DNA of 64,000 nucleotides from assembly GCA_022821145.1 (NCBI GenBank), contig JAJEEE010000084.1:10295-74294 (forward strand). The letters are read 5' to 3'. The translations under genes were made by a program, and so were the position numbers. Shown here in pieces: positions 27 to 21,855 of the stretch. The notes under the pieces are model-generated. The model was not told the origin of the DNA and made no database searches. It saw nothing but the letters and a program-made list of their open reading frames with translations. The first letter of the stretch is position 1; every line of letters starts with the position of its first letter. The DNA is from Acidobacteriota bacterium (GTDB lineage Bacteria; Acidobacteriota; Terriglobia; 20CM-2-55-15).

Positions 27-2414
27 ATGACGCATTCTACTCGATTGCTTCTCGGCTTGGCCTGCGGTGTGGCCGTCGCGTTCACGGCGTTCTCCGCCCC
101 GGCGGTCGCCCAAACGGTGGCGGGCGGCGATGCCGATGCGCTCGACGCGCATCGAGGCTTGGTGGATACGTATTGCCTCGCTTGCCACAGCGAGGCCGCA
201 CGGCTCGGAGGGCTCGCGCTGGAAGGACGGGACCTCGCCGACGCGCCCGATGAAGCGGAAGTCTGGGAGAAGGCCGTCCGCAAGCTCCGCGGACGCTTGA
301 TGCCGCCGCCCGGCAGCCCGCAGCCGGAGCAGGCGTCGATCGACGCGTTCGTCGGCTGGCTCGAGGGCGCGCTGGACGCGGCGCCGGCCGTCGAGGCGGG
401 CCACGTGCCGATCCAGCGGTTGAACCGCACCGAGTACGCCGCGGCCGTCAGGGAATTGCTGGCGGTGGATGTCTCACCGGACGTCCTGCCCCAGGACGTC
501 GCCGTCCACGGCTTCGACAACATCGCCGCCGCGCTCAACGAGTCGCCGGCCTTCGTCGAGCAGTACGTCGCCGCCGCGCGCTCGATCGCGCGGCGAGCCG
601 TCGGCGGGCCCAATCTCGAGAGCGTGAAGTACGTGCTCACCGAGAATCGGGGGCGCGAAGGCATGCCGCTGGGGCTGCGCGACGGGATGATGTTCCGGCA
701 CGAGTTCCCGGCCGACGGCGAGTACCGCGTCAACGTCCTGTTCCCTGACCAGACGGTCGGCCTGTATACGGGGCGCCTGGAGAACGCGAACACGCTCGTC
801 ATCATGGTGGACGGCCGCGTCGTGTTCCGCGAGCCGATCGGCGGCCTCGACGACCTGATGCTCAACAACCTCCTGGCCGGCGACGGGCGCGCCGAGATCA
901 TGGAACGGTTCACCAAGGTGCCCATCCAGGTGCAGGCCGGCGTGCGCGACGTGGTCGTCGGGTTCATCGAGCGATCGCAGTTCGAGTCGGCCGCGAACAC
1001 GGGCGGGGGCCGGTTCGGCGGAAACCAGCCCGGCCTGGGCGACGTCGAGATCGTCGGACCGTACGACGCAACCGGCGTTTCCAGCCCCAGCCGCGGGTTG
1101 ATCTACGTGTGCGAACCGGAAACGATCGGCGAGGACGCCTGCGCGCGGCGGATCGCGGACAACCTTGCAAGCCGCGCCTTCCGCCGGCGGGCGACGGAAG
1201 ACGACGCGGCCCGGCTGCTGCCGTTCTTCGAAGCGGGTCGGGTCGAGAGCGGCCGCTTCGACGACGGCGTGGAGCGGCTGGTCACCGCCGTGCTGGTGAG
1301 TCCGGATTTCCTGTACCGCTCGATCCGCGTTCCCGACGATGCCGTCGCCGATCTCAGCGGCCTGGAGTTGGCGTCGCGTCTGTCGTTCTTCATCTGGAAC
1401 ACGGGTCCCGACGATGAGCTGCTCGATCTGGCGGGCGCGGGCCGGCTGGGCGATCCCGGCGTTCTGGACGCGCAGGTCACGCGCATGCTGACCGACGCCA
1501 AGGCCTCCAGCCTCGTCACCAGCTTCGCGACGAAGTGGCTGGGTCTGACCGACCTGGAGTCCGTGCAGCCGGATCCGATGGTGTTCCCGGAATTCGACGA
1601 CGCGTTGTATCAGGACTTCGGACGGGAGGTCGAGCTGTTCCTCGAGAGCATCCTGCTCGAGGACCGCAGCATCCTGGACCTGTTGACGGCGGACCACACG
1701 TTCCTGAACGATCGGTTGGCCGCCCACTACGGCATTCCGGGGGTTGCGGGCTCGCAGTTCCGGAAGTTCGCGCTTGCCGACGATGCCCGTTTCGGGCTGC
1801 TCGGAAAAGGCGCGGTCCTCTTGAGCACGTCCTACGGGAACCGCACCTCCCCGGTGCTTCGAGGCGCCTGGGTGCTCGAGCGATTGCTGGGCACGCCGCC
1901 CACCCCGCCGCCCGCCGAAGTGGAAGCGTTCCCGGACGACCCGGAAGGCGAACGGCCCCGGACCGTGCGCGCGCGGCTGGAACAGCACCGCGCGGCGCCG
2001 GCCTGCAACCAGTGCCACGGCGTGATCGATCCGATCGGCCTGGCGCTGGAGAACTTCGACGCGATCGGGCGCTGGCGGACCATGGACAGCGCGGCGGAGG
2101 CCGCCATCGACGCCCGGACCGTGCTTCCGACCGGCGTGGCCATCGACGGCCCCGTCGAGCTCCGGGAACAGTTCACCGCCGCGCCGGCGATGTTCGTGCG
2201 GGCCGTCACCGAGAAGCTGTTCATGTACGCGCTCGGGCGGGAGCTCGAGTACTTCGACATGCCCGAGGTCCGCGCGGTGGTCCGCGAGGCCGCGAACGAC
2301 GACTACCGGTGGTCTTCGATCGTGAAGGCGATCGTTCGCACCGATGCTTTTCTGAAGCAGGGGCCGGTTCACTCACCGGCCGCGGACGTCGTGGAGGCGG
2401 CGGCCGCGAACTAG
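27..2414 (+). CDS. DUF1592/DUF1588/DUF1585-family secreted protein with cytochrome-c-like N-terminal motif (PSD1-like)
   Basis: Signal peptide (AVAFTAFSAPAVAQ) and a DTYCLACHS heme-binding-like motif. Domain order is typical of the Planctomycete/Acidobacteria DUF1592 family, which is invariably paired with DUF1501. The downstream DUF1501 gene starts 19 bp later. Confidence 0.8.
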   Translation: MTHSTRLLLGLACGVAVAFTAFSAPAVAQTVAGGDADALDAHRGLVDTYCLACHSEAARLGGLALEGRDLADAPDEAEVWEKAVRKLRGRLMPPPGSPQPEQASIDAFVGWLEGALDAAPAVEAGHVPIQRLNRTEYAAAVRELLAVDVSPDVLPQDVAVHGFDNIAAALNESPAFVEQYVAAARSIARRAVGGPNLESVKYVLTENRGREGMPLGLRDGMMFRHEFPADGEYRVNVLFPDQTVGLYTGRLENANTLVIMVDGRVVFREPIGGLDDLMLNNLLAGDGRAEIMERFTKVPIQVQAGVRDVVVGFIERSQFESAANTGGGRFGGNQPGLGDVEIVGPYDATGVSSPSRGLIYVCEPETIGEDACARRIADNLASRAFRRRATEDDAARLLPFFEAGRVESGRFDDGVERLVTAVLVSPDFLYRSIRVPDDAVADLSGLELASRLSFFIWNTGPDDELLDLAGAGRLGDPGVLDAQVTRMLTDAKASSLVTSFATKWLGLTDLESVQPDPMVFPEFDDALYQDFGREVELFLESILLEDRSILDLLTADHTFLNDRLAAHYGIPGVAGSQFRKFALADDARFGLLGKGAVLLSTSYGNRTSPVLRGAWVLERLLGTPPTPPPAEVEAFPDDPEGERPRTVRARLEQHRAAPACNQCHGVIDPIGLALENFDAIGRWRTMDSAAEAAIDARTVLPTGVAIDGPVELREQFTAAPAMFVRAVTEKLFMYALGRELEYFDMPEVRAVVREAANDDYRWSSIVKAIVRTDAFLKQGPVHSPAADVVEAAAAN

Positions 2415-2433: not shown

Positions 2434-3774
2434 ATGTTCATAACGAAGAAACACCTGTCCCGGCGAACGGTCCTGAAGGGCGCCGGCGTGACCCTGGCCC
2501 TGCCGTTCCTGGACGCCATGGTCCCGGCGGCCACGGCGACGGCTCAGACGGCGGCGGCGCCGAAGCTTCGAGCCGGCTTCTTCTACATCCCGCACGGGGC
2601 GATCATGTTCAACACCGCCCACGGGGCGGAATGGGACCGGTGGACGCCCAGCGGTTCCGGCGCGGACTTCCGGTTGAGCGCGATCATGCAGCCGCTGGAG
2701 CCGTTCAAGGACTGTGTCTCCTCGGTCGGGAACCTGGAGAACGCCGCCAGCGCCGGATCGGTGCACACGCTGAACCCGGCAACCTGGTTGAGTTGCACGC
2801 GCCCGGGCGGCGGCGGTTTCGGCGGCGGCGCCAACATGGCGGCGACGCTGGACCAGATCGTCGCGCGCAGGATCGGCCAGGACACGGCGCTGCCGTCCCT
2901 GGAGGTCGCCTCGGAGACGACCGTGCAGCAGGCGGCGGGCAGCGGCGGCCCGTACACGACGCTGTCGTTCCGCGACCCCACGTCCCCGCTGCCCATGGAA
3001 TACAACCCGAAGAAGGTGTTCAACCAGTTGTTCGGGGAAACGACGGCCGTGGAGCGCGTTGAGATCGCCCGGGAGAATCGCAGCCTCCTGGACATGATCC
3101 GCGACCGGACCGAGACGCTCCGCGGCGAGCTTGGAGCCGGAGACCGCGCCCGCCTGGAGGGCTACCTGGAGAGCGTTCGCGAAATCGAGCGGCGAACGCA
3201 ACTGATCGCGTCCCGGGACGTTTCCGACATCCACCTTCCGGAACGTCCGGTCGGCGTCCTCGACGACTTCGACCAGCAGGTCGATCTCCTGTTCGACCTG
3301 ATCGCGATCGCCTACCAGTCCGACCTGACGCGCGTGGCGTCCTACATCATGGTGGCCGAGGGCACGAACCAGACCTACAACCACATCGGGGTGCCGGACG
3401 CCTTCCACCCGGTGTCGCATCACGCCAACGACCTCGATCGAATCGAGAAGCTGGTGAAGATCCAGACGTGGCACATGGACCGGTTCGCCGCGTTCCTGCG
3501 GAAGATGGCCGACACGCCCGACGGCGACGGCTCGCTGCTGGATCACTCGATCTTCCTGTACGGGTCGAACATGGGCAACAGCGACCGCCACAACAACTAC
3601 CCGATCCCGACGGTCATCGTCGGCGGCGGCGACGGCCGCATGAAACGGGGCGGCCAGCACGTGGTCATGCCCGACCGCTCGCCGCTGGCCAACGTGCACC
3701 TGACGCTGCTCGGCAAGTTCGGGATCGAGCAGGAGTCGTTCGCCGACAGCACCGGCGTCATCTCGGAGTTGTAG
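2434..3774 (+). CDS. DUF1501 domain protein (sulfatase-like, Tat-exported)
   Basis: Twin-arginine signal SRRTVLKGAGVTLALPF, GGGGFGGG loop and conserved C-terminal HxxxN motifs. GGGAGA RBS lies 7 nt upstream of the start. Confidence 0.85.
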   Translation: MFITKKHLSRRTVLKGAGVTLALPFLDAMVPAATATAQTAAAPKLRAGFFYIPHGAIMFNTAHGAEWDRWTPSGSGADFRLSAIMQPLEPFKDCVSSVGNLENAASAGSVHTLNPATWLSCTRPGGGGFGGGANMAATLDQIVARRIGQDTALPSLEVASETTVQQAAGSGGPYTTLSFRDPTSPLPMEYNPKKVFNQLFGETTAVERVEIARENRSLLDMIRDRTETLRGELGAGDRARLEGYLESVREIERRTQLIASRDVSDIHLPERPVGVLDDFDQQVDLLFDLIAIAYQSDLTRVASYIMVAEGTNQTYNHIGVPDAFHPVSHHANDLDRIEKLVKIQTWHMDRFAAFLRKMADTPDGDGSLLDHSIFLYGSNMGNSDRHNNYPIPTVIVGGGDGRMKRGGQHVVMPDRSPLANVHLTLLGKFGIEQESFADSTGVISEL

Positions 3775-4726: not shown

Positions 4727-6412
4727 GTGAAGCGTTTCGTTCTGTCGGTCTTCTGCGTGGTGGCCGCGGCCGCGGCGTTCCTCGCCCAGGCGCCGCCGGG
4801 GGAGTTGGCCCGCGCGATCCAGGCCGGCAACCGCCGGGCCGCACTCGAGATGATCCGTGCCGGCGCCGACGTGAACGAGGCGCAGCCGGACGGGACCCGG
4901 CCGATCCACTGGGCGGTCTATCGCGTCGACTACGAGTTGATCGACGAGCTGATCTCCAGGGGCGCGGAGGCGGACGTCACCAACGAGCTGGGCTCCACGC
5001 CGCTCTCCGAAGCCGTCAAGCTGCGGGACGCCGCGATGGTACGGACGTTGCTCGACGCGGGTTCCGGACCCGAGGGCGCCAACCTCGACGGCCAGACCGC
5101 GCTCATGCTGGCCATCAAGAACGGGGACCTGGAGATCGTCCGGGCGCTGGTCGACAACGGCGCGAACGTCAACGCCGTGGAGGCCGTCCAGGACCAGACC
5201 CCCTTGATGTGGGCCGCCGCCGCCACGCGGAACGCGGCGGAGATGGTGGACATCCTGCTCGCCAACGGCGCGGACGTCCACGCCCGCGCGCGGTTCACCG
5301 ACTGGCCGAGCCAGATCACGTCGGAACCCCGCGCCCAGTATCACGCCTACGGCGGACTGACCTCGCTGCTGTACGCCGCGCGCGGCGGTTGTCTGGCGTG
5401 CGTCGAATCCCTGGTGACGGCCGGCGCGGACGTCAACCTCCCGACGCCCGAGGGCGTGACGCCCCTGAAGGTCGCGCTGGAGAACGGCAACAACGACGTC
5501 GCGCTGTTCCTGCTGGGCAACGGCGCCAACCCCCACGTCTGGGACGTGTACGGACGCACGGCGCTCTACGTCGCCGTCAACCGCAAGAACGCGGGCGGCG
5601 GCGGTTTCGGGTTCGGCGGCGGGCGCGGAGGCCGCGGGGCGCCGATCGGCCTGCCCGATCCCGCCGCCGGTCCGGCTGTCACGAGCATGGACGTGATTAC
5701 CGCGTTGCTCGACGCGGGCGTCGACCCCAACACCCAGCTCAGCATGCGCCGCCCCAGCAGTCAGGGCGGACGGTTCAGCGACCCGCTCCTCAGCACCGGC
5801 GCGACGCCGCTGCTTCACGCCGTCCGCGACAACGACCGGGAAGTGACCGAGCTGCTGCTCGAGCGGGGCGCCAATCCCAACATCTACGGGATGGGGACCA
5901 CGCCCTTCCTGCTGGCCGCCGGCGTCAACCCCTACGGCGGACGCGGAGGCCGCGGCGGCGCGCCGGCCGGCCCCGACACGGAACTCCTGGACCTGTTCAT
6001 CGAGCACGGCGCCGACGTCGACGCCCAGGTGACGGGCGTCCTGTCGTTCTCGATGCGCGTATCCCGGCGGGTCTCCGACGACGAGGGCGTGTCGGCCCTG
6101 CACTTCGCCGTCCAGTCCGGCAACGCCGGCCTGGTGCGCTATCTCCTGGACCACGGCGCCCGCACGGACCTGAGGGACTGGTCGGACCGCACGCCCCTGG
6201 ACGTGGCCAACGGCGTCCCCGCGCGACCCCTGCCGCCGGACGCCGGCGGCGCCCGCGTCCCGGATCCCTACGCCGTCGCCGACGACGAGGACGAGCCGGC
6301 CCCGCCGCCCGCCGCTCCCCCCGGATTCGGCGGCCGCGGCGGAGCGGGAGGCCCCGAAGCGGAAGTCATGGCCGAGATCCGGACGCTGCTGGAAGCGGCT
6401 CAAGGACAGTAG
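4727..6412 (+). CDS. Ankyrin-repeat protein, secreted
   Basis: Multiple ankyrin consensus repeats (TPLHWAV..G..E/D..LL..GAD.N) and an N-terminal signal peptide. Gly-rich inserts (GGGGFGFGGGRGGRG). GGAGG RBS before the GTG start. Confidence 0.8.
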   Translation: MKRFVLSVFCVVAAAAAFLAQAPPGELARAIQAGNRRAALEMIRAGADVNEAQPDGTRPIHWAVYRVDYELIDELISRGAEADVTNELGSTPLSEAVKLRDAAMVRTLLDAGSGPEGANLDGQTALMLAIKNGDLEIVRALVDNGANVNAVEAVQDQTPLMWAAAATRNAAEMVDILLANGADVHARARFTDWPSQITSEPRAQYHAYGGLTSLLYAARGGCLACVESLVTAGADVNLPTPEGVTPLKVALENGNNDVALFLLGNGANPHVWDVYGRTALYVAVNRKNAGGGGFGFGGGRGGRGAPIGLPDPAAGPAVTSMDVITALLDAGVDPNTQLSMRRPSSQGGRFSDPLLSTGATPLLHAVRDNDREVTELLLERGANPNIYGMGTTPFLLAAGVNPYGGRGGRGGAPAGPDTELLDLFIEHGADVDAQVTGVLSFSMRVSRRVSDDEGVSALHFAVQSGNAGLVRYLLDHGARTDLRDWSDRTPLDVANGVPARPLPPDAGGARVPDPYAVADDEDEPAPPPAAPPGFGGRGGAGGPEAEVMAEIRTLLEAAQGQ

Positions 6413-11474: not shown

Positions 11475-11718
11475 CGGAATCCCCTCCTCACACCTGAATG
11501 ACGCCATGGAGTCAGTATTCTGGCGAGGCGAAGCCGATGTCAACGTATCGCGCCCATCGACGGCCCTGGCGCGACGATTCCCCGGACGTCTGCACGACAC
11601 GGCGCGCACGGAGCTCGAACAGTTGTATGATCGGCATCGACGGTCCGGCTCCGTCCAGTCGGGAATCGGCCGTCGAACCCTCCGGGTTTCCGGGGTGGTC
11701 TATCAGAGGAGAAGTCCG

Positions 11719-12567
11719 ATGAAACGCATGACACTCACCAGCATCGTGCTGACGGTCGCGCTGCTCGCGCCGGTAGCCGCGATGGCGCAGGTCGCTTGCA
11801 CGCGCGACGGGCTGCAGAACGCGGCGGATCTCTACATCGAGGCCCAGACCTCGGGCGACCGCTCGGGACTGCCGCTGCCTCCGGGCGTGGGCTACCAGGA
11901 GAACATGGCGGTCGCCGACATCGAGACGGGCCTGATCAACACGCCGATGGCGATCGACCACCACCGCAGCCTGCTCGACACGGACACGTGCCAGACGTTC
12001 ACGGAAGTGATCGTGACGGACGAGGACGCGCCCTACGTGCTCGGTACGCGGCTCCGGGTGAACGGCGACAAGATCGCCGAGGTCGAGATCCTCTGGACCA
12101 CGACCGGCTACTGGCTGTTCGACGCCGACGCCTACCTGCAGTATTCGTCCACGGAGGACTGGGGGACGATCCCCGTCCCGGAGCGCGATTCCCGCGGCAC
12201 GCTGGTGGCCGCCGCCAACGCCTACCTCGACGCGTTCCTGGAAGGGAACACCGACGACGTGCCGTGGGGCTACCCCTGCGTCCGCACCGAAGGCGGCATG
12301 CACACCGGCACGGGCTCGGACGACGATACCTGCGCGGTCGGCGTCCCCAGCGGCGTCAACATCGCCAACCGCCGATTCGTGGTCGACGAGACCATCGGTT
12401 CGGTCGTCGTGTTCTGCACCTTCGGCGCCGGCAGCCCGGGCGGCGGCAGCGGCGCGCCCGACACGCACCTGTTCCGGCTGGAGAACGGCGTCTTGCGGTA
12501 CGTGCACACGCTCACGCACCTGCTGATGTCGGACTTCGGAGGCGGCGGAGGAGGCGCAGACGATTAG
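11719..12567 (+). CDS. Secreted hypothetical protein, paralog copy 1
   Basis: GAGGAGAAG RBS and signal peptide MKRMTLTSIVLTVALLAPVAAMAQ. About 88% identical to the gene at 21015. Gly-rich C-terminus. Confidence 0.6.
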   Translation: MKRMTLTSIVLTVALLAPVAAMAQVACTRDGLQNAADLYIEAQTSGDRSGLPLPPGVGYQENMAVADIETGLINTPMAIDHHRSLLDTDTCQTFTEVIVTDEDAPYVLGTRLRVNGDKIAEVEILWTTTGYWLFDADAYLQYSSTEDWGTIPVPERDSRGTLVAAANAYLDAFLEGNTDDVPWGYPCVRTEGGMHTGTGSDDDTCAVGVPSGVNIANRRFVVDETIGSVVVFCTFGAGSPGGGSGAPDTHLFRLENGVLRYVHTLTHLLMSDFGGGGGGADD

Positions 12568-13603: not shown

Positions 13604-14542
13604 TCAGGCGACGGTCCTGAAACGCTCGAAGCGCACCGCCAGACGATCGCGGTCGGGGCGGTCTCCTGCACGTTTTGGCAGATGCAGGACACTGCCCTCA
13701 AGCTGTTTCAGAGCTTCCAGCATCGGCCCGTCGTGCTGCTCGAGGAGTTGCCCGGAAACGTGCACGCGATAGTCCGGATCGATGCCGATCAGGTGGGCGT
13801 CGAACGCGGCGTGGTGGATCTTGGATAGCGGCAGGCCGTTGGGCACGATCGGCTGGCCCAGCATCTCATCCTTGTCGGAGACGATGTGCGCCGCGTCGAG
13901 CAGGCGGTGTTCGCGCAGGCCCGACAGGGCGCAGCGCCGGTCGTATGCGGCGATGACGGCTTCGCGGAACGAATCCTGATGCAAACGCTGCTTCACGACC
14001 CGCAGGGCGTAGCGGCGTTCTGCCGCCTGCGGCAGCGGCGACAGGTCGTCCTGCTCGGGCAAGCCGAACGAGATGCTCGCCTTGAGTGCCGCCGGATTCC
14101 ATCCTGAAATGAAGGTCGGGACGATGGCTTGGTATCGGCCGGGGGCGACTCCGAGAAAGTAGATGACGGGAACATGGTGTTCGTATGCCTCGAGCAGCCA
14201 GCGGTTGTCCGCCGCTGCCGGGTCCGACCCCATGAACGCGTAGTCGACGGTCTCTTCGCCCTGGTAGATCTGCCGATGCGCTTCACGCTGATCGTCGTAC
14301 CAGACCCGGCCGCCGCGTCGCGGCACGACCGTCTTGATGGACAGCAGGAAGCGCATCTGCCGCGGTTTGAAGATGCCGCGTTGCGGATTGATGAGCGGGA
14401 TCCGCCGGCCTTCGAAGTCGAAGCCGGGCTTGAGCAAATCCGCGGTCAACTGGTCGTGGACCACGTTCAACCCGCGGACATGGTCGAAGGCGGCAAGTCG
14501 CATCCGCGCGTCGAGGGCGATGAGATCGGCGTTTCCCGGCAT
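13604..14542 (-). CDS. HNH endonuclease (HNH_2/PF13391-type) with an N-terminal about 190-aa putative DNA-sensing domain; candidate Type IV (modification-dependent) restriction enzyme
   Basis: C-terminal motif CALSGL...LDAAHIVSDKD...NGLPLSKIHHAAFDAHLIGIDPDYRVHV matches the HNH_2 signature. The architecture (sensor domain + HNH_2) resembles ScoMcrA-like enzymes. Confidence 0.7.
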   Translation of the reverse strand: MPGNADLIALDARMRLAAFDHVRGLNVVHDQLTADLLKPGFDFEGRRIPLINPQRGIFKPRQMRFLLSIKTVVPRRGGRVWYDDQREAHRQIYQGEETVDYAFMGSDPAAADNRWLLEAYEHHVPVIYFLGVAPGRYQAIVPTFISGWNPAALKASISFGLPEQDDLSPLPQAAERRYALRVVKQRLHQDSFREAVIAAYDRRCALSGLREHRLLDAAHIVSDKDEMLGQPIVPNGLPLSKIHHAAFDAHLIGIDPDYRVHVSGQLLEQHDGPMLEALKQLEGSVLHLPKRAGDRPDRDRLAVRFERFRTVA

Positions 14543-15208: not shown

Positions 15209-15604
15209 ATGGCCACGACCAGCATCACCGTCCGCAACCTCGATGACCACGTGAATACCGGCTTGCGCGTGCGAGCGGCGAACGACGGTGGTTCCATGGA
15301 GAAGGCAGCGCGGCTGACTACGCGCGAGGCGGTCGGCCGCAAGCCGAGTAACCGAAATCTGACCGGCATCATCCGATCGCATTTCGGCCCGGACAACGGC
15401 GTCGATTCAGAGTTGTCACCATTCTGTACTCGAAACCTCAGGAACTGTGTGGAGAGTGCGACGTCTTGGTCACCGTCGATTTCACGGCTGGGCGTCGACT
15501 ACGCGGCAGGTCCGTATCGAAGCACGGCGTGTGAACGATCACCTGTCGTCAGTCGTCTAGCCGAGAACTGTCCTGCCTCGACACGGGAGCCGGCTGAAGA
15601 ATAA
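15209..15604 (+). CDS. Ribbon-helix-helix antitoxin-like protein (FitA/VapB-type) with an unusual C-terminal extension; no cognate toxin follows
   Basis: MATTSITVRNLDDHVNTGLRVRAANDGGSMEKAARLTTREAV is the classic Arc/RHH antitoxin N-terminus. The ORF runs to 131 aa and overlaps the convergent 372-aa gene. No PIN toxin ORF is found downstream. Confidence 0.5.
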   Translation: MATTSITVRNLDDHVNTGLRVRAANDGGSMEKAARLTTREAVGRKPSNRNLTGIIRSHFGPDNGVDSELSPFCTRNLRNCVESATSWSPSISRLGVDYAAGPYRSTACERSPVVSRLAENCPASTREPAEE

Positions 15605-16667
15605 CGTAACCATCGACGACCAACTTCTGATCCAGCGCTTCCACTTTCCGCTGAAATTCCGACGGCGTCATCTGGTTCTCGTCGAGCAACGAGTACTGAT
15701 CCACGTAGCCCTGGAGTACGCCGTGGCATGCGACAAGTTTACGCAGCGCTGGAACGTTTTTCTCCGTGTCCACCTCAACCGTGCGCTTCGCTTCCTTGGG
15801 CGGCCAGGGAATCCAGGATCCGTCCCCGCCAACGGAGAGGTGAATCTTATTCCGCAACTCGTTAATGCGTTCTTCTTCGCTCCGCTTCTCGTCGTTGACG
15901 AAATTCAGCCACGAGGCCACTTCGCTTAGCGGAACGTCGGACGCAAACTCGCCAGCCATGAACCGCTCTGGATGTTGGCCTAAAAAGTCGCGCTCTACGA
16001 TTCGTCGGGCTTGCCTCGCCCAGAATGTGAAGTCGTCTTCCAAGTTGCGTCTGGCGGCACCTACCATTCCCAGTTCCGCCGAGCACTTGGCGGTCGCAAG
16101 AGATGTCAGTGCGAAGTATTCCTGGCACGCCATGGCCGTCTCGGTCGGAGATTCAGGGAGTAGTTCCTGGTACTTCTCCTTGATCGGTCCGAAAACGTTC
16201 AGAATTCCGTGAAGCAACTGTTGTTCACGCGCATCCACGGAGCCTTCTTGCATGACCATCGAAAGGTATTTCAGGGCGCTCTTCAGCTTGGCGCGTTCGT
16301 CCAATTCCAGCAGTCGTGCTATTCCGTCCACTGAGTCCTTCAGCGCTTTCAGATTGTCGTCGAGTTTCGTCAGTTTGGCATGAATAATGCCGAATCCCAC
16401 GGCGCTGACTGCTAGGTTCAAGCCGGAAAAATGCATCGCGCGCGCTGCGTGTTGCAACACGACGTCGGGGGTGCCGACTTCCCCCACGGGGATCAAGTGC
16501 CGGATGATTCGGCCTGCTCCGTCGTGACCCTGTGCGACGCGGATCACGCCGCCCGACAAGTCAAAAACTCCGCTCTTGACTCCTGCGATGACATCCTGAG
16601 GGATTGATCGAGCGACAGTCCATCCGTGCAGAAAATCCGGAAGATTTTGGCTGGTCACGAGCGCCAT
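15549..16667 (-). CDS. Hypothetical protein (372 aa) with an N-terminal globular region, one hydrophobic segment (LNLAVSAVGFGIIHAKL) and a long coiled-coil-rich C-terminal part; lies in the AT-richer core of the 13.6-17.8 kb accessory island
   Basis: No recognisable family. Local sequence is AT-richer (roughly mid-50s %GC by eye) than the rest of the window. It has its own sigma70-like promoter. Confidence 0.5.
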   Translation of the reverse strand: MALVTSQNLPDFLHGWTVARSIPQDVIAGVKSGVFDLSGGVIRVAQGHDGAGRIIRHLIPVGEVGTPDVVLQHAARAMHFSGLNLAVSAVGFGIIHAKLTKLDDNLKALKDSVDGIARLLELDERAKLKSALKYLSMVMQEGSVDAREQQLLHGILNVFGPIKEKYQELLPESPTETAMACQEYFALTSLATAKCSAELGMVGAARRNLEDDFTFWARQARRIVERDFLGQHPERFMAGEFASDVPLSEVASWLNFVNDEKRSEEERINELRNKIHLSVGGDGSWIPWPPKEAKRTVEVDTEKNVPALRKLVACHGVLQGYVDQYSLLDENQMTPSEFQRKVEALDQKLVVDGYVILQPAPVSRQDSSRLDD

Positions 16668-16707
16668 GGCTTGTGTGTTCGTCGTTGTCTCCTTGCTGGA
16701 AACGGCA

Positions 16708-16741
16708 ACATTTTATCGAGTTGGGATCAACAACGTCAAGA
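16708..16741 (-). promoter_or_regulatory. Sigma70-like promoter for the 372-aa gene (TTGACG-N17-ATAAAAT)
   Basis: Minus-strand sequence reads TTGACGttgttgatcccaactcgATAAAATg. It lies about 33 nt upstream of the ATG at 16667. Confidence 0.45.
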
Positions 16742-16936
16742 TTCGATTTCGTCACAAATGACTGATTATTAAAGTGGTTATCGATCGCACGGCTTCCCCC
16801 GCCATCAGGTTGCGCAGATCGTGGGCGTGGCATCCAGTGATGCCGAAGCTGCCGAATTCCCAGAACGGGTCGTCTCGCATGTCGGACGCGTTCTTCGGTC
16901 TGCGAAGATGTACGACAATGACTCGTTCATCGCGCA

Positions 16937-17773
16937 TCAGTTATTTCTCTGAATCAGCTCAACCCTTTGCCGCACGAACCACCGGTAGAATTTCCTGGTG
17001 TTCAGAAAAGTCGGCGGTCTTGCGCTGCGCTGAATATAACCGTCGTTCACCGATAGGCCGCCCCACTTCTTGAGCAAACTGGGACGCACGCGATAGGCGC
17101 GGTCGCGCCATTCGCCGATTGGGATGCACTTGGTCAGACGCCCGGACACAGTCGCCTTGGCACGTACGACGATGTCGGCAACGGCAATTTTGCGGACGCG
17201 GGTATGGGCGTTGATCTTGAAGTGCTTTGCGCGAATCGAAACGGCTGGCAGAACGTCATCGACGACGAATAGACCGACCAACCCGTAAACCAGCTTTCGC
17301 GGCTCTCGAACTGACCGAAGACCGGCGTAGAAGACCAGGAGGTCGCCGTCCGATAGATGTTTGAGTCCGGTGCCGCGCTTGTCGCCGTTGTCGCCGTAGG
17401 TCAGCCACTCGAAGTCCGGGTCCAGATGCATCGAACGATCAAGCAAGCGCGGCGGAGGTCCAAGACGACTTTCGAGACCGATGCTCGAAGCGAACTGCTG
17501 CAAAGACGGGAGAATTTCACGGTACGGTCGCTCGAGACCAGGCCGGAAGGGGCGGCTTTCGGGAATCGGTACGTACACGAATCGACCGGATTCCGGGTCG
17601 AGCGGAGCGTTCCATTCCCCATACGCTTGGTCCACGCCCACTCGAATCAGAATCGCCTTCATCTCTGGTGCCAACTGCTCGTCGATCCAAGAGCGGGTGT
17701 TCTGACCGGCTCGCAGTGTCTCGTCCACTTCGAATGTTAGTGTGTCTGCGGTTTCCGCGCCGAGCTGAAGCAT
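16937..17773 (-). CDS. Hypothetical protein (278 aa), in the AT-richer core of the island
   Basis: Conserved-looking core LIRVGVDQAYGEWNAPLDPESGRFVYVPIPE and a basic C-terminus (KKWGGLSVNDGYIQRSARPPTFLNTRKFYRWFVRQR) that may bind nucleic acid. No family recognised. Confidence 0.5.
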   Translation of the reverse strand: MLQLGAETADTLTFEVDETLRAGQNTRSWIDEQLAPEMKAILIRVGVDQAYGEWNAPLDPESGRFVYVPIPESRPFRPGLERPYREILPSLQQFASSIGLESRLGPPPRLLDRSMHLDPDFEWLTYGDNGDKRGTGLKHLSDGDLLVFYAGLRSVREPRKLVYGLVGLFVVDDVLPAVSIRAKHFKINAHTRVRKIAVADIVVRAKATVSGRLTKCIPIGEWRDRAYRVRPSLLKKWGGLSVNDGYIQRSARPPTFLNTRKFYRWFVRQRVELIQRNN

Positions 17774-17936
17774 TTTGGCAGAATAGGCTGAACGGCGGGA
17801 CGCAAAGAGAGACCGTCAGTCCAAGTCCGGCCATCCGGTGGAAAGAGTGCTGCGCGACGCTCGAAACGCGCTGACGTAGCGAATGGCGCACGTCTCCTGC
17901 GCCGGAAAAAAGGCAAGGCAAGGCCTTCAACGCGAA

Positions 17937-17958
17937 AGGCCCCGGCTCGCGCCGGGGC
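17937..17958 (-). terminator. Rho-independent-type hairpin (GGCCCCGGC tcgc GCCGGGGCC) downstream of the G8 gene
   Basis: Perfect 9-bp GC stem with a 4-nt loop. On the minus strand it is followed by CTTTCGCG. Located 27 bp after the G8 stop. Confidence 0.45.
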
Positions 17959-17984
17959 CTCACGTCCATTCAGCGGGGATGAAT

Positions 17985-20516
17985 CTACCTGCTGACGTTG
18001 ATCCTGGTTCCACCAGCCGGACCGCCGGCGCCCGGACCGCCGGGGCCGCCGGTGCTGGCCGCACCGCTGGCGTCCGCGACCACAAGCTTGACCCACAGGG
18101 CCTCGTCATCGCGGTAGTGTGACGTCTCGCTGGCGTCGCGCAGCGCAGCCAGGCTGCTTTGTTCCGCGCCCACGGCGGCGGTTGTGAACTCGGGAAGCTC
18201 GAAAATCACGAAGGAGCCCGGGTCCATTTCCTGCAAGGAGAGGGACAGCGTCTCCCTGGATGTCTCGACCCGGACCTCGGCGCCGCTGCCGATCGTGGTT
18301 CCCCCGTTGTATTCGAACCGCCTGCCATTGCGTTGGAGGATGATCGGATTGGTAATGGGGCCCGTCTGGAACCCGCTGAAATTGCCGGCGATGCTCAAGC
18401 GGCCCATGTCCCCCGTGCACACGGCGGCGTTCCAGGACTGCCTGATCTCACAGACGTCTTCGTCGGATGCGATTCCGTTGTCGATGACTATGTAGGCGCC
18501 GGGAGTGCCGCTGACCGAGCCGTCCACGTCATGGAACGCCGCACTCCTGTAGGCGGCGCTGCGTCCGTAATCGGACGCCCAACGGCGTTGGATCGGAGGG
18601 AAGCTGACCGGCTTGGCGTTGACGAATGTCGCGCCCTCGACCCAGTTGTTGGTGCTCATGCCGAAGCTGGTGAACAACAGGTAGGAGAGTGCGCCCGCAT
18701 CGCGAAGCTCGTTGGGCTCGTAGTTCACGAAAGTGACGTTTTCCACTTCGTGGTGGAAATCGTAGAACTCGTAGCCGCGAATCGGGAAATCCGGGGCCGC
18801 GGACGGCAGGCTGCGGCCGTAAGCCACTTCCTCGGGACTGGTGGGGTTTCCTACGTTGTCGCTCTCCCCCACGAACAGAGAGTCGACGACCCGCGACGTG
18901 TAGGGCGCGGCGCCGACAATGCCGGCCGCATGGGTAAAGCCGATCGCGTTGTCGGCCAGTTTCAAATTGGTGTACAGGTGCATCTCACCGCGGCCCCAGA
19001 CGGCGCCATTGCGGTTCTTGTAGCCGGTGAAATCATCGAAGTGCGCCACCACCACCTCGCTGTTCTCATCGGCGGGATCGGCGCGGCTGACAAGGTTGGG
19101 GCCGGCGATACCGAACGTGCCGTCGGGGCGGGGGCCGCGGTCGAGCATCAGGCCATCGAAATTGGAGTGGGCGGTATTGCCTCTGAACTCCCGCAGCCTG
19201 GACCGTCCGGGCCAGGTATTGGCGCTGATCTCCGTGCCTTCGAACGCCCCGATCGGATGCGTGGGAAAGGCCATCCAGTAGCCGACCTGGTCGGAACCCG
19301 CCGCCACGTTGTCACGGTAGATGTTGTCGGGGTGCGTGATCCAGAAAGTGGAGGCGGTGTTGTCCGAGGGGATCAGGACATGCTCGGACCGCTGGCCCTC
19401 CGTGGACTGATGAGGCAGAAAAAGGTTGGTCGGGTTGCAGGGCAAGGTCGGATGGCACTTGGTCTGGATTCCCAGGTTGCGAACGACCTGGTTGCCCGTC
19501 TCGATGCCGTCTTCCATGAAGAAGCAGTGCCCCACGGTGTTGTAGGTGACATTGTTCTCGACGAGCAGATTATCCGTGCCATGAATGGTCACGCAGCGGT
19601 TGAACGTGTCGTGAATCGCGGAGTTCTTGATGTATTGCCCCGTCACGTCGCCGTTGAGATGCCAGTGGATCGGGTACCGGGCGAGCTCCAGATGCTGACC
19701 CATTCGAGTCAACTCGATGCCGGCGACATTCATCGTGCTCCCGTCCATCGCCATGATATGCCCGCCGAAATAGGAGTCTTCGGAGTCGGCGGAAGCCTGA
19801 ATCTTGATATTGCGCGTCAGCAAACCGACTTCGCCGCGTTGATCGACGTCGAACGTGATCTCGCCGAAATGCATGTATTCGAGCGGCTGATCCAGCGTGA
19901 TCACATTGCCCTGAACACCGGAAATGAGCCGCTTCTCCGCCTGCCTCGGGTTGAAATCCGTGGACGCCAGAACAATCGCGTCACCGACTCGCCACTGGCT
20001 CGCGTCGAGAACTTCGATCGTGGTGGCGCCCGCCTCGGCGGTTGCCGCCAGCTTGGTCCACGCGTTTTCCCGATCACCGTACAGGCTCAGCACTCCGCCT
20101 TGAATCAGGATCCCGCGGTCACCCATTTCGTTGATGTTCTCATCCGGAACATTGTCGGTCAGGGTTATCGTCGCATTGCGCGTGTGAGGATCCGTTTCAC
20201 TGCCGGCATGCAGCTCGCCGCGCAGCAGAATCCACTCGGTCGTGAACTCGACATCGTTCTCGTTGGAAAAGCTGAGCTGTCCGTCGAGATTCATCCCGTG
20301 CAGCGCCGGCGGGCTGACGTCGAGGACGACGTCCATGCCCTCGCCGATGGTGACGATGTCACCCTCCCCCGGGACCGCGCCGTCCGACCAGGTGGACGGA
20401 TCCGACCAGAGTCCCCCGCTGACCGCCGAGGCGCCTTGCTCCTGCGCTGCGGCGCTGACGGCGAAACAGGCTGAAACCAGCAATGAGAAAAGAGACAAGC
20501 GATTGCGAATTTGCAT
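17985..20516 (-). CDS. G8-domain / right-handed beta-helix secreted protein
   Basis: Start refined to MQIRNRLSLFSLLVSACFAVSAAAQ (GGGGAG RBS). GGLWSDPSTWSDGAVPGEGDIVTI is the G8 domain start. Parallel beta-helix repeats follow. C-terminal Gly/Pro-rich tail. Confidence 0.75.
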   Translation of the reverse strand: MQIRNRLSLFSLLVSACFAVSAAAQEQGASAVSGGLWSDPSTWSDGAVPGEGDIVTIGEGMDVVLDVSPPALHGMNLDGQLSFSNENDVEFTTEWILLRGELHAGSETDPHTRNATITLTDNVPDENINEMGDRGILIQGGVLSLYGDRENAWTKLAATAEAGATTIEVLDASQWRVGDAIVLASTDFNPRQAEKRLISGVQGNVITLDQPLEYMHFGEITFDVDQRGEVGLLTRNIKIQASADSEDSYFGGHIMAMDGSTMNVAGIELTRMGQHLELARYPIHWHLNGDVTGQYIKNSAIHDTFNRCVTIHGTDNLLVENNVTYNTVGHCFFMEDGIETGNQVVRNLGIQTKCHPTLPCNPTNLFLPHQSTEGQRSEHVLIPSDNTASTFWITHPDNIYRDNVAAGSDQVGYWMAFPTHPIGAFEGTEISANTWPGRSRLREFRGNTAHSNFDGLMLDRGPRPDGTFGIAGPNLVSRADPADENSEVVVAHFDDFTGYKNRNGAVWGRGEMHLYTNLKLADNAIGFTHAAGIVGAAPYTSRVVDSLFVGESDNVGNPTSPEEVAYGRSLPSAAPDFPIRGYEFYDFHHEVENVTFVNYEPNELRDAGALSYLLFTSFGMSTNNWVEGATFVNAKPVSFPPIQRRWASDYGRSAAYRSAAFHDVDGSVSGTPGAYIVIDNGIASDEDVCEIRQSWNAAVCTGDMGRLSIAGNFSGFQTGPITNPIILQRNGRRFEYNGGTTIGSGAEVRVETSRETLSLSLQEMDPGSFVIFELPEFTTAAVGAEQSSLAALRDASETSHYRDDEALWVKLVVADASGAASTGGPGGPGAGGPAGGTRINVSR

Positions 20517-20943: not shown

Positions 20944-21014
20944 CGTGGCCTTCCAGCGCGCCGACCACCGACCCTCCGAAACACTCCCCGGGGGCGCACC
21001 AGAGGGGAAGTTCG

Positions 21015-21855
21015 ATGAAACGCATCACTCCGGTTTGGATCGTGCTGACCGCCGCTCTGCTCGTCCCGACAGCCGCGTTCGCCCAAATTGCCTGCACGCG
21101 CGACGGGTTGCAGAACGCGGTCGATCTCTACATCGCTGCCCAGACCTCGGGGGATCGATCCGGCCTGCCGCTGCCGCCGGGCGTGGGCTACATGGAGAAC
21201 GTGGCGATCGCCGACATCGAGACCGGCCTGATCAACACGCCGATGGTGATCGACCACCACCGCAGCCTGTTCGACACGGACACCTGCCCGACCTTCACGG
21301 AAGTGATCGTGACGGACGAGGACGCGCCCTACGTCCTCGGCACGCGACTCCGCGTCAACGGCGACAAGATCGCCGAGATCGAGATCCTGTGGACCACGAC
21401 GGGCTACTGGCTGTTCGACGCCGACGCGTACCTGCAGTATTCCTCGACGGAGGACTGGGGCCCGATCCCGGTCGCGGACCGCGACTCGCGCGGCACGCTG
21501 GTGGCCGTCGCCAACGCCTATCTCGACGCGTTTCTGGAAGGGAACACGGACATCGTGCCATGGGGTTATCCCTACGTCCGCACCGAAGGCGGCACGTACA
21601 CCGGCACGGGTTCGGACGACGACACCTGCGCGGTCGGCGTCCCCAGCGGCGTCAACAGCGCCAACCGCCGATTCGTCGTGGACGAGACCATCGGGTCTGT
21701 CGTCGTGTTCTGCACGTTCGGTGCCGGCACCCCGGGCGGCGGCAGCGGCGCGCCCGCCACGCACCTGCTTCCGGGTGGAGAACGGCGTCCTGCGCTACGT
21801 CCACACGTCGACGCACCTGCTGATGTCGGACTTCGGGGGCGGGGCGGACAACTAG
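21015..21855 (+). pseudogene. Paralog copy 2 of the secreted hypothetical protein, with a 1-nt insertion near the 3' end (about 21770) shifting the frame
   Basis: About 88% nt identity to 11719..12567 starting about 45 bp upstream of the ATG. CTGCTTCCGGGTGGAG here versus CTGTTCCGGCTGGAG in copy 1. The original frame resumes to ...SDFGGGADN* ending at 21855. Could be a sequencing error. Confidence 0.5.

Follow-up and report, generated by a model that had tools for sequence, protein, structure and literature searches.

Gene content and base composition of the locus

The locus examined here lies in a stretch of 64,000 nucleotides (nt) from an Acidobacteriota bacterium (GenBank assembly GCA_022821145.1, contig JAJEEE010000084.1, positions 10,295 to 74,294), hereafter referred to as the window, and comprises two neighbouring, co-oriented open reading frames (ORFs) of 372 and 278 amino acids (aa). 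A first-pass annotation, made from the letters alone, had described them as a two-gene cassette of family-less proteins and as the best candidate in the window for an undescribed defence module. Both ORFs are present (Table 1); the longer one codes for a predicted relative of JukB, a pore-forming anti-phage effector, and the shorter one carries an Nmad3 domain and lies next to the remnant of its partner gene.

The atypical composition reported for this region was confirmed. The GC content is 0.567 in the 372-aa coding sequence (CDS), 0.584 in the Nmad3 gene and 0.469 in the 145 bp upstream of the 372-aa gene (16668-16812), as compared with 0.649 in the HNH nuclease gene nearby and 0.67 in the window, and the GC content at third codon positions (GC3) is 0.67 in both genes versus 0.85-0.95 in most host genes. 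A 67-nt AT-rich run at 16711-16777 is, as had been stated, unique in the window. Among windows of 1.37 kb, 2.7% have a GC content below 0.565, and those below 0.58 are confined to ~15.1-18.0 kb and 22.0-24.7 kb; the zone of the two genes is one of the two lowest in GC. The near-consensus promoter proposed for the 372-aa gene was upheld in part: a single sigma-70-like site (TTGACG-N18-TAAAAT, 10/12) lies at 16739-16710 on the reverse strand, ~43 nt upstream of the ATG, where its position alone argues for a promoter, the count of one in 3 kb being no higher than chance would give (0.7 +/- 0.7 such sites in shuffled sequence).

Table 1. Coordinates of the features of the locus (upper rows) and of other genes and matches in the window (lower rows).
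Feature	Coordinates	Strand	Evidence or remark
Predicted JukB-superfamily gene, 372 aa, intact	15549..16667	-	N-terminal beta domain, hydrophobic helix, helical bundle
AT-rich upstream region (GC ~0.47), promoter-like site and AAGGAG motif	16668..16798	-	Nmad3-partner homology ends at ~16798
Nmad3 partner, 5' remnant, ~45 codons	16799..16940	-	tblastn, DNA alignment
Nmad3-domain gene, 241 aa, intact, partner lost	16937..17662 (ORF to 17773)	-	Pfam; predicted PUA-like fold
FitA/VapB-like RHH antitoxin ORF	15209..15604	+	Pfam FitA-like_RHH, E 2.4e-10, residues 10-46
TfoX_N-domain gene, 109 aa	14774..15103	+	Pfam TfoX_N, E 3.8e-17; public gene call L001 mapped to the window
HNH_2 nuclease, N-terminal domain of no known family	13604..14542	-	Pfam HNH_2, E 8e-10
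Paralogous repeat, first copy	11689..12545		~860 bp
Paralogous repeat, second copy	20985..21842		~860 bp
Tandem-repeat protein, 178 aa	12880..13416	+	33-nt (11-aa) repeats
BjrC68-like match	17915..18006	-	Rfam, 23.7 bits (gathering score 39)
G8/CEMIP-type protein, 863 aa	17985..20576	-	E 1e-25 and 3e-82
Schlafen-group-3/DUF2075-type helicase, 667 aa	21948..23951	-	PADLOC PDC-S41, full length, E 7e-210
ORF with PDC-M72A and ankyrin matches	4727..6412	+	PADLOC

Affinity of the 372-aa protein with JukB

The 372-aa protein has no match in Pfam or NCBIfam. It does match the PADLOC model of JukB (PDLC04114; E 2.2e-17, 61.5 bits, over part of the profile only) and is in this respect not family-less. 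JukB is the effector of Juk (jumbo phage killer) in Pseudomonas aeruginosa PA14 (PDB 9JHT; PADLOC PDLC04114/04115), where it forms tetrameric pores that permeabilise the early-infection vesicle of phage phiKZ and is recruited by JukA bound to phage gp241 (PMC13434031, PMC13282480). As the crystal structure of JukB has been solved and its pore mechanism published, the proposal of an undescribed module does not hold.

A homolog search returned 139 relatives of the 372-aa protein, all of them unnamed, in Deltaproteobacteria/Binatia, Anaerolineae, Cyanobacteria and Microbulbifer, and the matches of an exhaustive profile search, clustered at 50% identity, numbered 146 with a limit of E <= 1e-30 and 987 with one of E <= 1e-3. 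The JukB model was matched by each of the 57 aligned members of the family, with a best E of 1.7e-24. Two JukA-linked operons were used as controls: on a Pseudomonas luteola plasmid, JukA (E 2.4e-28) overlaps JukB (E 4.4e-142) by 4 nt, and on Klebsiella plasmids JukA (E 1.4e-65) overlaps a divergent JukB that reaches 44.8 bits only. Since this JukA-linked Klebsiella protein scores below the window protein, the score of the latter was counted for homology with JukB. Furthermore, HHalign aligned the family with P. luteola JukB at 99.2% probability (E 7e-20, 197 columns), the motifs GGV(I/V)R, AGQIV.HL and LSGLNLAVS..GFA being common to both, and the family profile matched PDB entry 9jht (JukB) with an E of 0.005.

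The likeness to JukB extends from the N-terminal motifs (GGVxR, AGxIVxHL-P) to the succession of a hydrophobic LSGLNLAVS..GF helix and a helical bundle. In the 372-aa protein, the N-terminal beta domain carries an invariant GGVxR...AGxIxRHLxP motif, and a moderately hydrophobic helix occupies residues ~77-98 alongside the helical bundle, which in the AlphaFold model takes the place of the long coiled-coil region formerly predicted. The most hydrophobic 19-residue window (77-95) has a Kyte-Doolittle value of 1.49, which is under the usual transmembrane threshold, so that a helix buried in a soluble form fits better than a constitutive membrane anchor.

Comparison with structures in the PDB gave JukB as the best match, at 11-14% identity, in a result that was not clean. 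Structural matches were also obtained to alpha-helical pore-forming toxins, namely domain I of Cry delta-endotoxins and PirB and, more weakly, AhlB, SmhA and MakB. The 372-aa protein has no sequence similarity with these toxins, lacks the receptor-binding domains II and III and appears to be cytoplasmic, and helical bundles yield many non-specific matches. The 372-aa protein also differs from JukB itself: it is 40-90 aa longer, its C-terminal ~45% is not alignable by sequence, and its family is found in Cyanobacteria, Chloroflexota, Desulfobacterota/Binatia and Acidobacteriota, as opposed to Pseudomonas and enterobacteria. On profile evidence, we assign the protein to the JukB superfamily, its stand-alone gene being a predicted divergent member and only a distant relative of jukB.

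Genomic context of JukB-like genes

The comparison covered ~60 homologous loci in all, among them those gathered with a 14-sequence alignment of the JukB-like family; flanks of up to +/-8 kb were available for 56 loci with JukB-like homologs. In canonical operons jukA (YaaW; PF13099/PF03981) overlaps jukB by 4 nt, whereas no jukA adjoins the JukB-like gene in the window or in any of the ~60 loci, and none of them represents a Juk system in this sense. No JukA was found in the window or in the ~60 loci with Escherichia coli YaaW as a phmmer query, nor with a three-sequence hidden Markov model that recovered both control operons (L071, L072). This model was built from the plasmid operons; a homolog search with YaaW listed only near-identical E. 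coli proteins. Similarly, PADLOC scans detected no JukA among 101 window ORFs of at least 150 aa, and no recurrent one among 137 ORFs immediately neighbouring JukB-like genes. The Juk preprint reports that jukA and jukB can be unlinked and that JukA pairs with varied effectors.

Neither Nmad3 nor its partner was found by tblastn in any of the 56 JukB-like loci, and no neighbour family recurred in more than four of these, the four being syntenic relatives. Neighbours are often PADLOC defence genes (PDC-S03, PDC-M45, TIR, DRT reverse transcriptases, viperin, AbiL, Cas1), and others are toxin-antitoxin genes. At 68% identity, the closest homolog is carried by a small mobilisable RepA_C/relaxase plasmid, on which it stands alone next to repA. 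The 372-aa gene shares with jukB an occurrence in defence or mobile contexts, and the defence flavour attributed to the locus stands in so far as the gene has homology with an anti-phage effector of validated function, has relatives often near defence genes, and is itself accompanied in the window by a type-IV-like HNH nuclease gene and a PDC-S41/Schlafen-type helicase gene. No JukB-like homolog was found in the phage genomes searched. DNA similarity to the other JukB-like loci ends within the CDS, and a mobile-element boundary is not definable from it.

Three further arrangements were observed among the JukB-like loci. On a plasmid of Candidatus Chlorohelix allophototropha (NZ_CP128401.1, 209146-210315), the JukB-like gene has a very large DEAD/DEAH helicase gene on one side (gap 43 bp) and a DpdE-like helicase gene on the other (gap 2 bp; PADLOC DpdE, E 2e-212), after which come a small gene for a four-helix bundle and a gene for an N6 DNA methylase; this is possibly a new effector context for JukB-like proteins. 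In a Lyngbya sp. metagenome-assembled genome (MAG), two JukB-like paralogs (P0087 and P0092) carry consecutive tags (VKK42_23560, VKK42_23565) on one contig, and one of the 137 neighbour ORFs also matches JukB; tandem duplication of the JukB-like gene therefore occurs. Finally, in four MAGs of Binatia, Deltaproteobacteria and Syntrophobacterales (L003, L012, L013, L014), the JukB-like gene is found ~40 bp downstream of a gene for a xanthine-dehydrogenase-family molybdopterin subunit, with a second such subunit gene on the opposite strand, and in L003/L014 DUF2442, HigB/HTH and Fic genes are wedged beside it. The site looks like a recurrent insertion hotspot.

The Nmad3 gene and its partner

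The 278-aa ORF, likewise described as family-less, matches Pfam Nmad3 (PF18754) over residues 39-236 with an E of 1.3e-22 and 81.1 bits against a gathering cut-off of 27. A search for homologs gave 2229; the listed ones span no more than 87% of the ORF, beginning with MKAILIRVG at what corresponds to Met38 (17662), and the true gene therefore most probably occupies 16937-17662, has 241 aa and is shorter than annotated. A second domain of ~200 aa, recognisable by the motif VHLR.P...DPFWEFGSFGCTGCH...RLAFAQGG, also quoted as DPFWEFGSFG(C/I)TGCH, forms a fusion with Nmad3 in 21 of 120 listed homologs; where it is not fused, this partner is the next gene and overlaps the Nmad3 stop codon. The partner is intact in six of ten Nmad3 loci (L007, L008, L063, L064, L067 and L068), and a JukB-like gene is found in none of the ten; a metagenome scan with a single Nmad3 protein had yielded eight loci. 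With none of the 56 JukB-like loci holding Nmad3 either, the pairing taken for a two-gene cassette occurs nowhere else. In L007, Nmad3 and its partner lie between a type I restriction-modification system with a PLD gene and conjugation/integrase genes. In two further loci (L069, ~2520-3300; L070, ~920-1480), the gene downstream of Nmad3 carries a G(A/G)AP...C(T/ )LAICKP motif, Nmad2-like by eye, in place of the DPFWEFGSFGCTGCH partner; the second domain with which Nmad3 pairs may thus vary.

In the window, this partner is truncated. The 269-bp spacer between the two genes, supposed to be empty, contains the 5' remnant of this third gene, which can be read as a 61-aa ORF (16752-16937; 61 aa also in the Logan gene call) that overlaps the Nmad3 stop codon and keeps the motif VHLRRP...DPFWEFGSFGITGCH. 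Over its first ~42 residues, this ORF shares 79% identity with the beginning of the partner. When the fused proteins P0123 and P0180 were used as tblastn queries, of their partner domains only residues 244-285 and 254-293, respectively, matched here, and nowhere else in the window; the remaining ~145-160 codons are absent from its 64 kb. At the DNA level, identity to L007 and L008 is ~85% down to ~16798 and random past that point, a collapse which coincides exactly with the start of the AT-rich promoter region of the JukB-like gene. With ~45 codons (16940-16799) left, the two-domain module of the Nmad3 family is not intact at this locus.

The model of a fused Nmad3 homolog of 78% identity (pLDDT 84) superposes on PUA-like readers, including EVE, YTH and ASCH domains, the modification-dependent nuclease VcaM4I, THYN1 with 5mC DNA and the McrB N-terminal domain, and the Nmad3 domain is probably a modified-base reader with a predicted PUA-like fold. 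Neither the Nmad3 protein nor the intact partner nor the fused form is represented by a PADLOC model, the partner also having no Pfam model, and no experimental function of Nmad3 was found in the searchable literature; the 'NMAD' systems of the DefensePredictor paper are Nmad2, not Nmad3.

A probable replaced segment and an orphan antitoxin

On the other side of the JukB-like gene, the antitoxin ORF carries an RHH domain like those of VapB and FitA. Unlike in VapB/FitA-VapC pairs, no PIN toxin gene follows it; the slot is held by the convergent JukB-like gene, whose 3' end is overlapped over 56 bp by the aberrant tail of the antitoxin ORF, and the locus has no VapBC/FitAB pair. The partner breakpoint, together with a toxinless antitoxin with an aberrant tail, therefore points to the replacement of a segment: ~1.3-1.35 kb with the JukB-like gene took the place of the 3' portion of the partner of Nmad3 and probably of a toxin gene, and the upstream AT-rich region came in with the JukB-like gene. 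When the antitoxin ORF is compared with VapB and FitA proteins of usual length, its antitoxin-like part stops near 15446, and the replaced segment may have its other boundary there.

Other genes of the window

The HNH_2, TfoX_N and FitA-like RHH neighbours named in the first-pass annotation are all real. The HNH_2 protein also matches a PADLOC HNH model (PDLC04132, E 3.5e-26) and scores 49.9 bits against NCBIfam PT-DNA_restrict, under the cut-off of 180; by these matches it resembles a type IV (modification-dependent) restriction enzyme, and we treat it as a neighbour only. The TfoX_N gene is similarly a neighbour and not part of any module demonstrated here.

The whole accessory stretch, holding a coiled-coil protein and the HNH, TfoX, RHH, JukB-like, Nmad3 and G8 genes, is bracketed by a pair of paralogs, 83-89% identical in DNA and placed 9.3 kb from each other as direct repeats, whose product has the signal-peptide-like start MKR(M/I)T...AQ(V/I)ACTRDGLQ. 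The frame of the second copy diverges near its 3' end (THLLPGGERR versus THLFRLENGV), which suggests a frameshift. The 178-aa protein consists of tandem repeats (DRF/GL..RIDGL..) and is hydrophobic in a C-terminal segment, and its Pfam matches, apolipoprotein-like and coiled-coil, are sub-threshold only. The gene directly upstream of Nmad3 encodes a hydrophobic N-terminal segment followed by G8 and CEMIP-type beta-helix domains, an architecture better known in animal hyaluronidase-like proteins. An Rfam scan of 12.5-21 kb gave as its sole result a sub-threshold match to the Bradyrhizobiaceae small RNA (sRNA) BjrC68, over terminator-like hairpins past the G8 gene, which is probably only the terminator of that gene. 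The second of the two GC-poor zones in the window (0.56) is taken up by the Schlafen-group-3/DUF2075-type helicase gene. Among the 101 ORFs scanned with PADLOC there were also single matches to mad3 (E 2e-31), mad2 (E 1e-17) and mad8 (E 1e-10) of MADS, none of which came from the 20 ORFs that were scanned again.

Discussion

We consider it likely that the 372-aa gene codes for a stand-alone pore-former of the JukB type, and that the unrelated Nmad3 gene lies beside it as a result of insertion or replacement, with no cooperation between the two. Their adjacency is most likely an accident, that is, a scar joining two unrelated genes acquired horizontally. The homologies, the lack of co-occurrence and the truncation breakpoint were directly observed.

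According to this scenario, the 372-aa gene would be transcribed from what appears to be its own promoter, and its product would rest as a soluble helical bundle with the hydrophobic helix buried, as suggested by its homology with JukB. Upon a trigger, the protein would oligomerise and then permeabilise a membrane, either that of a phage-derived compartment, as JukB does with the early-infection vesicle, or the host cell's own, as in abortive infection. As sensor, either a JukA-type protein from another part of the genome or the conserved N-terminal beta domain of the protein itself might serve. It is by analogy with JukB that we infer pore activity, trigger and defence function in this host. 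Nmad3, as a PUA-like domain of the EVE/YTH/ASCH type, would probably read modified bases and normally act with the fused or downstream ~200-aa domain. The incoming JukB-like segment would have deleted that partner from codon ~46 on, and probably also the toxin of the RHH antitoxin; of the broken two-domain module, most likely crippled at this locus, the Nmad3 gene is the half that is intact. From the former suggestion of an enzyme paired with a membrane or coiled-coil effector, only the 372-aa protein is retained, as a probable membrane-active effector.

Several points weigh against this interpretation. The sequence homology with JukB is confined to the N-terminal ~55% of the 372-aa protein, and JukA was ruled out within the 64-kb window and up to +/-8 kb around homologs, not genome-wide. 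The event may have been an insertion with deletion or a recombinational swap; flanking repeats, integrase marks and transfer RNA (tRNA) genes were sought at the insertion edges, where only short chance repeats were found, and the window has no tRNA. Moreover, both genes are co-oriented and have the same GC3, and they could have arrived jointly on one already rearranged fragment.

The surroundings of its relatives also raise the question of whether the JukB-like protein has a role other than anti-phage defence, such as addiction to a plasmid or mobile element, exclusion, a bacteriocin-like membrane toxicity or membrane remodelling for another purpose. The closest homolog is the sole accessory gene beside repA on its plasmid, some copies adjoin HigB/HTH, Fic or SocA/Panacea toxin-antitoxin genes, a sensor partner was not found, and the structural neighbours include secreted pore-forming toxins (Cry, PirB). 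We regard such a role as unlikely, given that the sole characterised relatives are defence effectors, that many homologs adjoin PADLOC defence genes, one of them lying between DEAD/DEAH and DpdE-like helicases, that no recurrent adjoining candidate for an immunity gene was found, and that the N-terminus, judged by its sequence, does not look like a signal peptide.

The wreckage at the locus, which includes the truncated Nmad3 partner, the orphan antitoxin with its aberrant tail and the frameshift-like 3' end of the paralog copy at 20.9-21.8 kb, would be consistent with both genes being decaying relics of old insertions with no present function. Both ORFs, however, run to full length and show no loss in the columns that are invariant in their families, and the JukB-like gene has kept a well-placed promoter-like site, which makes decay quite improbable. 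That Nmad3 and the JukB-like protein form a newly assembled pair, in which Nmad3 would recognise the DNA or RNA of a phage and switch on the pore in place of JukA, would accord with two adjacent, co-oriented and compositionally alike genes, with the modularity of Juk systems, in which varied effectors pair with JukA, and with intact ORFs that keep all family-invariant residues, but it is very improbable for a pairing unique to this locus (0/56 and 0/10 loci), interrupted by the stump of a third gene and by a promoter-like site separate from Nmad3, and in which the conserved partner domain of Nmad3 is destroyed.

The candidate for an undescribed two-gene defence system is thus resolved into a known effector family and a known, uncharacterised domain family with a gene-disrupting insertion between them, and the locus illustrates the turnover of defence islands, one defence gene overwriting another. 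What is new is of modest extent, namely a clade of JukB-like genes unlinked to JukA, of ~146 clusters (50% identity) and mostly from Cyanobacteria, Chloroflexota and Desulfobacterota/Binatia. Plasmids and defence islands carry lone relatives of JukB in phyla whose jumbo-phage biology is uncharted, and these relatives bear on the modularity of the link between sensor and effector in Juk. It is conceivable, if somewhat doubtful, that this clade represents a self-contained immune protein combining sensor and pore in a single gene, with no need of JukA. If so, phages with membrane-bound early compartments, or another membrane target, would be common in poorly studied phyla, and pores of the JukB type would constitute a portable one-gene defence on small plasmids.

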